DNA from: an uncultured Bacteroidaceae bacterium
GTDB lineage: Bacteria > Bacteroidota > Bacteroidia > Bacteroidales > GCA-2748055
Reading direction: 5' to 3'
DNA length: 63,864 bases
NCBI GenBank assembly: GCA_964563105.1
Contig: CAZLXM010000008.1
Span: 1-63,864, forward strand
The notes below the pieces were generated by a model that made no database searches, had not been told where the DNA came from, and was given only the letters and a program-made list of their open reading frames with translations. The position numbers and the translations under genes are program-made. This document shows positions 16,310-17,340 of this stretch, piece by piece; position 1 is the first letter of the stretch, and each line of letters starts with the position of its first letter.

Positions 16310-16640
16310 TAAATAACATAAAAGTGATGGATCAAACGGTCAATCGTTGGTATGTTATCAACCATATAGAGTAAAGTTTTTGACAATTCTATCAAAAGGG
16401 ACTAACTTACGATGGAATGATTAATTTATTTTTTGACGGAACCCCTATGTACTATTGTTTGCAAAAAAATGAAAAAAATAAAGAGGTTAATATAGAGGCT
16501 TGATTAACAATAATATAACACAATTTTTTTCTGATGAAACCTCCATGTACTATCGTTCACAACAAGAAAATGAAAATATTTGGAGGTTCCATCAGAACGA
16601 CGTGATTATTAACAAGATAACTCAATTATTTTCTGATGAA
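16310..16640 (+). repeat. Tandem array of about three ~100-bp leader units upstream of the response regulator, same family as the pnt leader
   Basis: Unit starts at 16327, 16436, 16534 and gene start 16636 (spacing 109/98/102). Linker TTAACAAGATAACTCAATTATTTTCTGATGAA. 16/17-nt inverted repeat at 16529-16545 / 16581-16597. Confidence 0.82.
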
Positions 16641-17340
16641 AACAAATAAGGACAGAATTTTACTGGTTGAGGATGATACCAATCTGGGGATTGTCCTTAC
16701 CGATTTTTTAGAAATGAATGAATATGATATTACTCTTGCTACAGATGGGATATCAGGCCTGGAGTTTTTTAAAAATGGCAATTATGATCTTTGCATTCTT
16801 GATATAATGCTACCATTTCGTGATGGTTTCTCTCTTGCTGATGAAATCAAAAAAAGGGACCCTGATATTCCAATTATTTTTCTTACAGCAAAAACAATGG
16901 AAAAAGACAGAATAAGGGGATTAAAAGCAGGAGCTGACGATTATATTACAAAACCATTTAGTAAAGAAGAATTGAAATTAAGGATAGATATTATTCTTAG
17001 AAGATCAAAATATTCTGTTGTCAGGCAGGATTTACCAGTTATATTTAAGATTGGGAAATTTACATTTGATTATTCCAATTATCTATTGAAATCTCCTTCC
17101 GGAACTGAGAGGAGACTTACAAAAAAAGAGGCTGAAGTTTTACGTTTACTTAGTATTAATAAAAATCAGATTGTAAAACGAGAGGTCGCTCTTAAAAACA
17201 TCTGGGGAAGTGATGACTATTTTATGGGTAGAAGTATGGATGTTTATATCGCTAAATTACGTAAATTCCTTAGTATTGATAAAACTGTATCAATAGTAAA
17301 TATCCCCCGAACAGGATTTAAATTAGAAGTTAAGGAGTAA
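16636..17340 (+). CDS. OmpR/PhoB-family response regulator, RprY-like
   Basis: Receiver domain LLVEDD..DIMLP..FLTAK..GADDYITKPF; winged-helix IWGSDDYFMGRSMDVYIAKLRK. Confidence 0.93.
   Translation: MKTNKDRILLVEDDTNLGIVLTDFLEMNEYDITLATDGISGLEFFKNGNYDLCILDIMLPFRDGFSLADEIKKRDPDIPIIFLTAKTMEKDRIRGLKAGADDYITKPFSKEELKLRIDIILRRSKYSVVRQDLPVIFKIGKFTFDYSNYLLKSPSGTERRLTKKEAEVLRLLSINKNQIVKREVALKNIWGSDDYFMGRSMDVYIAKLRKFLSIDKTVSIVNIPRTGFKLEVKE

Follow-up and report, generated by a model that had tools for sequence, protein, structure and literature searches.

A dispersed leader repeat with its own mini-ORF and hairpin precedes an OmpR-type response-regulator gene in an uncultured Bacteroidaceae bacterium

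The DNA analysed here is a stretch of 63,864 nucleotides (nt) from an uncultured Bacteroidaceae bacterium (GenBank assembly GCA_964563105.1, contig CAZLXM010000008.1, positions 1 to 63,864 of the forward strand), referred to as the window, in which a hairpin lies between a histidine kinase gene and an OmpR-type response-regulator gene. One arm of the hairpin spans the start of a short upstream open reading frame (mini-ORF) and the other arm can also pair with the start of the regulator gene, which a preliminary description of the sequence took as a translational attenuator serving the regulator. The hairpin itself was confirmed. It is part of a repeat unit of about 100-155 nt that is dispersed in high copy number in uncultured Bacteroidales, and our preferred explanation, which we hold to be reasonably probable, is that the feature represents the youngest of three tandem copies of a selfish or mobile cassette made up of an upstream ORF and a hairpin leader, with the relay of AUG and anti-AUG segments being intrinsic to the family.

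The dispersal of the unit is seen in contigs of four DNA runs containing this organism, which were aligned on positions 11400-17400. Summed contig depth in the bin of the unit was 568, 335, 58 and 73 in the four runs, compared with about 5-10 elsewhere, and over positions 16550-16579 it rose from about 5 to about 1,900-2,000 in run X1, with about 1,100 in run X2. Contigs at least 80% alike numbered 133-142 in X1 and 107-113 in X2, and their flanks were diverse, with sequence divergence setting in before 16534 and after 16641/42. Many contigs align from 16534/16535 to 16638-16642 and then enter unrelated sequence on both sides, others run on into another unit with an exact period of 102 nt, and the contigs specific for this locus end inside the unit, at 16552/16556 and 16598. 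Furthermore, two predicted proteins (P0003 and P0004) from two unrelated NCBI contigs (16.7 and 57.9 kb) each correspond to the translation of a tandem pair of units.

At the kinase-regulator locus the spacer of 355 nt consists of 12 native bases followed by three units arranged head to tail. The features of the locus, including the arms of the two helices (H1 and H2) discussed below, are:

15006-16280 (+): histidine kinase gene (HisKA and HATPase_c), the upstream partner of the regulator gene.
16281-16292 (+): native spacer of 12 nt, comparable to the spacers of 3-35 nt at most orthologous loci.
16293-16435 (+): unit U0 (tentative), oldest and strongly decayed, beginning with ATGATACCCC; its mini-ORF is reduced to 7 codons; also found in the sister strain (L089).
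16436-16533 (+): unit U1, decayed; ACG replaces ATG, the arms are weakened, and the 3' module (16501-16533) gives the TTCTG preceding U2.
16534-16635 (+): unit U2, an intact 102-nt copy of type A with 5' module, hairpin and 3' module; it harbours the reported hairpin.
16529-16545 (+): left arm of H1, spanning the AUG of the mini-ORF.
16534-16605 (+): putative mini-ORF of U2, MKPPCTIVHNKKMKIFGGSIRTT, 23 codons with the stop codon TGA at 16603-16605; its basis includes the variant pattern and the homologous 40-codon ORFs in loci L082, L083 and L085.
16581-16597 (+): right arm of H1; its 3' half (16587-16597), which includes CATCAGAA, is the anti-AUG arm of H2.
16603-16635 (+): A/U-rich 3' module of U2, TGATTA..ATAACT.AATTATTTTCTG, abutting the start codon of the regulator gene.
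16631-16641 (+): gene-start arm of H2 (TTCTGATGAAA), containing the regulator AUG at 16636-16638.
16636-17340 (+): OmpR-type response-regulator gene (Response_reg and Trans_reg_C), with an N-terminus that agrees with 80 relatives.

Two direct repeats spaced about 100 nt apart connect the copies: 39 nt at 16501-16539 recur at 16603-16641 with 85% identity, and 16426-16480 recurs at 16524-16578 with 73% identity. When alignment scores were compared with those of shuffled sequences, U1 against U2 gave a z value of 10 and U0 against the other units gave values of 3.1-5.2; U0 is tentatively regarded as a repeat unit. Tandem Repeats Finder called no repeat, the units being too diverged. The ATG of U0 stands 12 nt past the kinase stop codon, which is the position of the regulator ATG in the relatives, and the gradient of decay from U0 to the intact U2 fits repeated insertion right before the ATG of the gene.

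It was previously described that CATCAGAA (16590-16597) can pair with TTCTGATG at two places, 16529-16536 at the start of the mini-ORF and 16631-16638 at the start of the regulator gene, and all coordinates and pairings were correct when the sequence was rechecked. Both TTCTGATG sites fall within the 39-nt direct repeat, and the second complementarity thus exists because the unit has been duplicated, the two sites not being independent coincidences. In H1, 16 of 17 positions are paired, with a single A.C mismatch. This helix is the main feature of the fold predicted for 16500-16660 (-30.8 kcal/mol, z = -3.51, equalled by none of 200 shuffles), and H2 reaches 10 pairs out of 11 (16587-16597 with 16631-16641) with a duplex energy of -10.7 kcal/mol (p = 0.008 against shuffled controls). 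The free-energy comparison of the two states proposed in the preliminary description was made over 16520-16665 and gave -30.8 kcal/mol for the H1 state and -25.0 kcal/mol for the enforced H2 state. With this advantage of about 6 kcal/mol and an unpaired probability of about 0.65 for the regulator AUG in the H1 state, the predicted folds agree with the proposal that the upstream helix is the default and leaves the AUG of the gene largely free. The release of the anti-AUG arm onto the gene start upon occupancy of the left arm is likewise predicted: when 16522-16550 was blocked, mimicking a ribosome, the anti-AUG arm paired with the gene start and the unpaired probability of the AUG fell to about 0. 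The mini-ORF stop codon does lie just beyond the arm, and 30 nt separate it from the regulator ATG at 16636. What stood of the AUG/anti-AUG relay as a translational attenuator was its geometry with two mutually exclusive helices; its being bespoke to this gene did not, as the following comparisons show.

The motif ATAACWMAATTWTTTTCTGATGAA occurs three times in the window, against zero expected, and the third occurrence lies upstream of pntA, where two units are found:

11608-11760 (+): unit P0, decayed, with a 9-codon mini-ORF (MKFPYILHV) and H1 arms at 11604-11618 and 11708-11722; the right arm also complements the start of P1 (p = 0.002).
11761-11858 (+): unit P1, decayed, its mini-ORF having 22 codons and its 3' module running up to the pntA ATG at 11859.

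A scan of metagenomes with a 20-mer gave a single contig, L082, and L083/L084 and L085 were reached through a protein search with the mini-ORF. When the mini-ORF and the open +2 frame were used as the two protein queries against 5.8 billion clusters, only four ORFs (P0001-P0004) were obtained, and scans of viral contigs and plasmid searches revealed no copy of the unit. The units of L082, L083 and L085 form a sister subfamily, type B, which shares with type A the first 33 nt (ATGAAACNTCCATGYACTATYGTWCACAAY..) and the last approximately 33 nt (GATTATTAA..TAAC.TAAAT.TATTC..), while its centre is a GC-rich hairpin and its mini-ORFs have 40 codons as opposed to 23 in type A. Aligned with the window's type, these units gave z values of about 6.5-10.4 against shuffles. 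Type B is also a high-copy repeat, in permafrost and peat runs where the depth rises from 3.6 to 400-1,100 and one run holds 159 contigs. The boundaries in those runs are the ATG of the mini-ORF and the ATGAAA of the gene, tandem joints are present, and in some peat or permafrost variants the centre has been swapped for a short arm resembling that of type A.

Five gene-proximal units could be read, and they precede the regulator gene, pntA, a holB-like gene (L082), a CDGSH gene (L083) and a DUF4956 gene (L085). All five have the orientation of the gene, with the final base directly preceding its ATG, and in all five the mini-ORF stop codon lies 29-32 nt upstream of the gene start. The 5' end of the unit can be similarly close to the preceding gene: in L085 the unit ATG overlaps the stop codon of the upstream VTC gene (ATGA), and in L083 it follows two bases after the upstream stop codon. 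The units are thus placed where the ATG of the gene would sit, so that a unit takes the original initiation position and gives the gene a new upstream region. The identity shared at the flank of the unit extends over ATG, ATGA, ATGAA or ATGAAA, following the second codon of the gene itself. From the five cases together with the alignment end-points, we infer that the unit is targeted to the site immediately 5' of start codons. As a separate observation, within 4513-5352 of L083 the unit lies between a 161-codon Fer4_19/CDGSH ORF and a 65-codon CDGSH ORF, which may be a split former gene or a tightly coupled pair. In run X1, a contig of 1,814 nt holds a pair of units that face opposite directions and are separated by about 980 nt; one member of the pair is identical to U2 over 105 nt.

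The two helices were tabulated by script, unit by unit, and both appear in part, and in small numbers, to be a property of the family, with some compensatory exchanges across subfamilies. H1, pairing start-proximal codons with the downstream arm, was found in U2, P0 and the three type-B units, and its pair at position +8 is C-G in U2, A-U in type B and U-A in P0, while the pair at +9 is U-A or C-G. The anti-start segment of H2 opens at the homologous GGTT(C)CAT in every subfamily and continues with a variable triplet able to pair with the bases at -3 to -1 of the following start. These triplets are CAG/CTG in U2 and P0, GAG/CTC in L083, and TCG/CGG with one wobble pair in L085. Against shuffled sequences, the H2 pairing gave p values of at most 0.008 (0.008, 0.002 and 0.008) at three of the six junctions with recognisable arms and a marginal value at a fourth (L083, p = 0.088), these four being U2, P0, L083 and L085. 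RNAalifold, applied to four units, yielded no helix other than the GC-rich hairpin of type B, the anti-start segments being misaligned by one column. Within the more than 100 type-A contigs, the left arm has no variant at 3% or above. The commoner variants of the right arm are 16584 A>G and 16591 A>G, both giving G.U pairs, and 16589 C>T, which mends the A.C mismatch, while a minority variant, 16591 A>C (about 5%), would break a pair. The A>G changes are compatible with pairing only on the sense strand, which favours a constraint at the level of RNA or of the sense strand. The A.C mismatch itself (16537/16589, position +4 of the mini-ORF) is found in type A and in the short variants of the peat population, and only about 5% of the type-A copies have it repaired.

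The variants also bear on the mini-ORF, which looks as if it is translated. In codons 1-11 of type A the only variants at 3% or above are GTT>GTA and CAC>CAT, whereas changes of K>R, F>S, S>F, I>V/L and T>M occur in the codons after these, and the stop codon varies as TGA>TAA. The type-B population in peat has only GTT>GTA and AAC>AAT in codons 1-10, with non-synonymous variants from codon 11 on, and in the three type-B copies that were read, four of the five differing sites within codons 4-10 are third positions (TGT/TGC, ATC/ATT, GTT/GTA and AAC/AAT). Such a third-position pattern is as expected from selection on a translated decapeptide, MK(P/H)PCTIVHN, and not from a DNA recognition site. 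The mini-ORF peptides matched no Pfam or NCBIfam family.

The kinase gene is nearly always directly upstream of the regulator gene in the 80 Bacteroidales loci that were compared, the regulators of which are 56-75% identical to that of the window. A spacer length was obtained for 78 of these loci, with a median of 18.5 nt, 60 of the 78 spacers at or below 40 nt and several gene pairs overlapping. A search with nhmmer found no copy of the unit in any orthologous locus examined, which, as judged from these loci, shows that the unit was inserted at this operon and is not ancestral to it. The few long spacers among the relatives hold unrelated hairpin repeats (L002, L003, L024 and L034, e.g. GTAACCC/GGTGACG arrays in L003), and the junction thus seems to collect repeats recurrently.

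The sister strain offers a comparison over a shorter distance, its pntA coding DNA being 96% identical to that of the window. Both pntA units are orthologous there and about 95% identical, with a 2-nt indel that shifts the frame of P1 and two non-compensated changes in the right arm of P0. At the kinase-regulator locus (L089 2607-2867, corresponding to 16281-16541 in the window; flanks 85-96% identical) the equivalent of U1 is an intact type-A copy (MNPPCTIVHNMKMKIFGGFIRTT), while U1 of the window is badly decayed, which suggests gene conversion or replacement among copies. In the regulator-proximal 3' module 4 of 23 positions differ. In the older copies at both the regulator locus and pntA, either the start codon, the reading frame or the pairing is gone, indicating that the host does not maintain the switch. 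Sharp features in young copies and eroded ones in old copies are typical of a selfish repeat with a design that counts at insertion or soon afterwards.

With respect to transcription, contigs from four RNA libraries (X3, X6, X8 and X15) cover 16310-16918, including 16327-16918 and 16523-16868 with 0-1 mismatches, and none of the RNA contigs lies over the kinase gene or pntA. The contigs spanning the stack verify its assembly and place the leader and the regulator on one RNA, and transcription of the regulator may begin inside the stack or shortly upstream of it.

If these observations are taken together, the unit would be composed of four parts: its own ATG with the conserved 5' module encoding MK(P/H)PCTIVHN; H1, pairing start-proximal codons with a downstream arm, and in the subfamily of the window also the AUG itself; the anti-start segment, which lies late in the mini-ORF and can base-pair with the start region of the following ORF (H2); and the stop codon followed by an A/U-rich 3' module of about 30 nt that ends exactly at the downstream start codon. 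The unit would spread to positions immediately 5' of start codons, where its AUG would take over the original initiation site of the gene. By default H1 would mask the unit AUG, and the gene AUG in its fresh A/U-rich module would stay open. A ribosome entering the mini-ORF, e.g. by coupling from the upstream gene, would free the arm to mask the gene AUG transiently, and by melting H2 and terminating 30 nt upstream it would hand translation on to the gene. A role of the unit in translation is thus modelled from the predicted structures, and the likeliest purpose of the geometry would be to make insertion at a start codon tolerable. Since the relay is a property of the family, it would be inherited from the inserted cassette and not be an adaptation of the two-component system, with any regulatory effect being a by-product.

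Several points weigh against this explanation. The H2 pairing fails in L082 and at the junction between P1 and pntA, with 6 of 9 pairs in each case. No transposase, recombinase or fixed-length target-site duplication was found, and mobility is read from the distribution only. About eight units are readable in full, and the 100 or more others are seen through depth and per-position variant tables, so that the abutment to start codons has n = 5 and the covariation is that of a small sample. Local alignments clip near the ends of the unit, making the seeming invariance of the last bases before the ATG uninformative, and the depth of assembler contigs may pool related genomes, making about a hundred or more copies a firmer statement than any exact number. 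Finally, the RNA libraries were oligo-dT primed and read as contigs, from which strand, 5' end and abundance are not readable.

The alternatives have to be judged by the same data. A translational attenuator that evolved at this locus for the response regulator, as originally proposed, is in our opinion very unlikely, even though both helices and their energetics are as described, a short ORF is present in a 5' leader on the transcript of the gene (in RNA contigs without strand), the mutually exclusive helices include one predicted to occlude the initiation site, and the sister strain also retains the stack at the junction. The leader is absent from the 78 orthologous loci and is hence not conserved with the gene, the unit precedes unrelated genes and is present in more than 100 other contigs, a copy number which by itself largely refutes the proposal, the two upstream units at the regulator locus are decayed, and the 3' module has diverged at 4 of 23 positions from that of a strain so closely related in pntA. 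The opposite alternative, a purely selfish DNA repeat of the MITE (miniature inverted-repeat transposable element), REP or PATE type, in which the hairpin would serve transposition or recombination as single-stranded DNA and have no translational role, deserves more attention, and we regard it as unlikely rather than remote. It accounts for the high copy number, the small size, the internal inverted repeat, the tandem stacking, the fast turnover between strains and the decay of old copies. It does not lead one to expect an inverted repeat that is not terminal, the right arm ending 44 nt inside the 3' end, nor sense orientation together with direct abutment to a start codon in five out of five read copies, nor synonymous third-position variants in the first ten codons of two populations, which a DNA recognition signal would not produce. 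The commoner arm variants, wobble-compatible on the sense strand only, and the preserved mini-ORF stop codon at a constant distance of about 30 nt from the gene ATG point in the same direction.

The synonymous-only variation of the conserved N-terminal decapeptide might instead mean that the units are dispersed genes for a functional micropeptide, such as a toxin or the precursor of a modified peptide, the RNA pairings being incidental. We consider this at least as improbable as the locus-specific attenuator, as the C-terminal parts are wholly different between the subfamilies (23 and 40 codons) and show non-synonymous variation inside each of these, no family of Pfam or NCBIfam is matched, a mere handful of called ORFs overlap units among the 5.8 billion clusters (two queries), and the copies sit within operon junctions with no partner genes seen at the five read loci. 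That the tandem repeat is an artefact of assembly could be suspected from the short-read contigs of other runs, which break within the unit, and we give it hardly any credence, since RNA-derived contigs, assembled independently, read across 16327-16918 and 16523-16868 with 0-1 mismatches and the same start of the stack is found in the sister strain.

A number of known elements were considered and rejected. Rfam covariance models gave no hit for the window or for L082, L083 and L085, only noise up to E 10 and far below gathering scores; the hammerhead ribozyme or C/D-box kink-turn suggested by CUGAUGA consequently has no Rfam support, and CUGAUGA is absent from the sister subfamily. An intrinsic terminator of the kinase gene is contradicted by the lack of a T-run, and a terminator scan found none. 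Duplicated promoter or OmpR boxes (TTAACA-N5-ATAACT, with 11-nt spacing) do not agree with more than 100 contigs having unrelated flanks, and a promoter scan was no better than shuffles. In an integron attC array the flanking genes would not be conserved housekeeping genes in conserved order, as they are here. REP/BIME elements are palindromes of 20-40 nt that go with a RAYT transposase and are usually located 3' of genes and in alternating orientations; as judged by size, position and orientation they differ from the unit, which has 100-155 nt, is 5' of genes and is in one orientation in the five read cases. With respect to MITEs, the 102-nt unit has the small size, the lack of a transposase and the many dispersed copies, but not the terminal inverted repeats: the shared sequence covers 16534-16641, of which the last 44 nt lie beyond the right arm (end at 16597), and the 3' end has no complement at the 5' end. 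No cognate autonomous element was noticed among the ORFs of the window, where a Pfam scan covered the nine nearest ORFs.

Small dispersed intergenic repeats that are co-transcribed with genes are known as ERIC in enterobacteria and Yersinia, Correia/NEMIS in Neisseria and RUP/BOX in pneumococcus (PMC10969869, PMC2229807). Like ERIC, Correia and RUP, the unit measures 100-150 nt, has tens to hundreds of copies, forms a hairpin, is intergenic and often within operons, is found in mRNA, occurs in mosaic or tandem form and turns over fast between strains. Those elements have terminal inverted repeats, either orientation and no register with start codons, whereas the inverted repeat of the unit is internal, and the unit opens with an ATG of its own followed by the conserved mini-ORF, is always sense in the read cases and ends exactly at the downstream ATG. 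A 2024 review of MITEs mentions neither start codons, ribosomes nor Bacteroidetes. The TAACTGA heptamer repeats of Beggiatoaceae, cyanobacteria and a few Bacteroidetes, for which a post-transcriptional role has been proposed, resemble the unit in being mostly forward and in ending within a few nucleotides of the start codons of unrelated genes, but they are simple 7-nt tandem repeats with no ORF, hairpin or modular unit (PMC4679880). The unit matches none of the compared systems (ERIC/Correia/RUP, erm-type leaders and TAACTGA repeats) in full, and no description of such an element was found in Rfam or in the literature searched. Rickettsia palindromic elements are selfish, and their in-frame insertions inside ORFs end up in the translated protein. 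They share with the unit the design of a selfish repeat that leaves the host gene expressible, and they differ in that the unit stays outside the ORF and brings a separate mini-ORF. A citation of these elements is given in PMC10969869. Leader-peptide attenuators such as those of ermC/ermB and cat/cmlA are found at single loci, are conserved with the gene and sequester the Shine-Dalgarno sequence. The unit has in common with the erm and cat leaders a short upstream ORF and mutually exclusive helices of which one buries the downstream initiation site, the position of the ribosome deciding between them in the known leaders; unlike those leaders, the unit pairs the AUG itself, is multicopy and portable, and decays in its old copies. 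Translational coupling through unmasking of a sequestered initiation region has been reviewed (PMC12548453).

It is tempting to go one step further and regard the unit as a mobile element of a new class, homing to the site directly 5' of start codons in Shine-Dalgarno-poor Bacteroidales and carrying a complete translational module, in which an AUG and a conserved nascent decapeptide are joined by a self-masking hairpin, an arm against the next start and an initiation region that is new to the gene. We put this forward as a speculation that is rather doubtful at present; if true, dozens to hundreds of unrelated genes would be wired to one shared ribosome-dependent switch. How start codons are chosen in Bacteroidetes without Shine-Dalgarno pairing is incompletely understood. 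A portable initiation region that pairs AUGs directly and is tolerated at operon junctions would be a natural experiment on what initiation and coupling require in these bacteria, and if the register with start codons holds genome-wide it would be an unusual targeting for a bacterial repeat and a ready-made part for the control of translation in Bacteroides. For annotation, long spacers in conserved operons of these metagenome-assembled genomes can be stacks of units, at which assemblies break.

A few minor observations concern other parts of the window. The pntA stack (11604-11863) has the alternating AUG/anti-AUG layout, with a spacing, CATCAGA-N32-TTTTCTGATGAA, exactly as found before the regulator gene. 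The sequence preceding the GTG start of the 2-oxoglutarate dehydrogenase E1 gene (AATAATTAAATAACTTAATTCTATTCAA directly before GTG; 11193-11225, minus strand) has a weak resemblance to the 3' module (nhmmer E = 2.6) and may be a very old remnant of a unit. The motif TTCTGATGAA occurs five times in the window, against 0.4 expected; two of these copies lie within coding regions, at 11990-11999 (+) in pntA and at 11028-11037 (-) in the E1 gene, 132 and 156 nt from the respective starts, and they read Ser-Asp-Glu in frame, which may be a coincidence. Farther downstream, 26234-41689 (+) is a single open reading frame of 5,151 codons.

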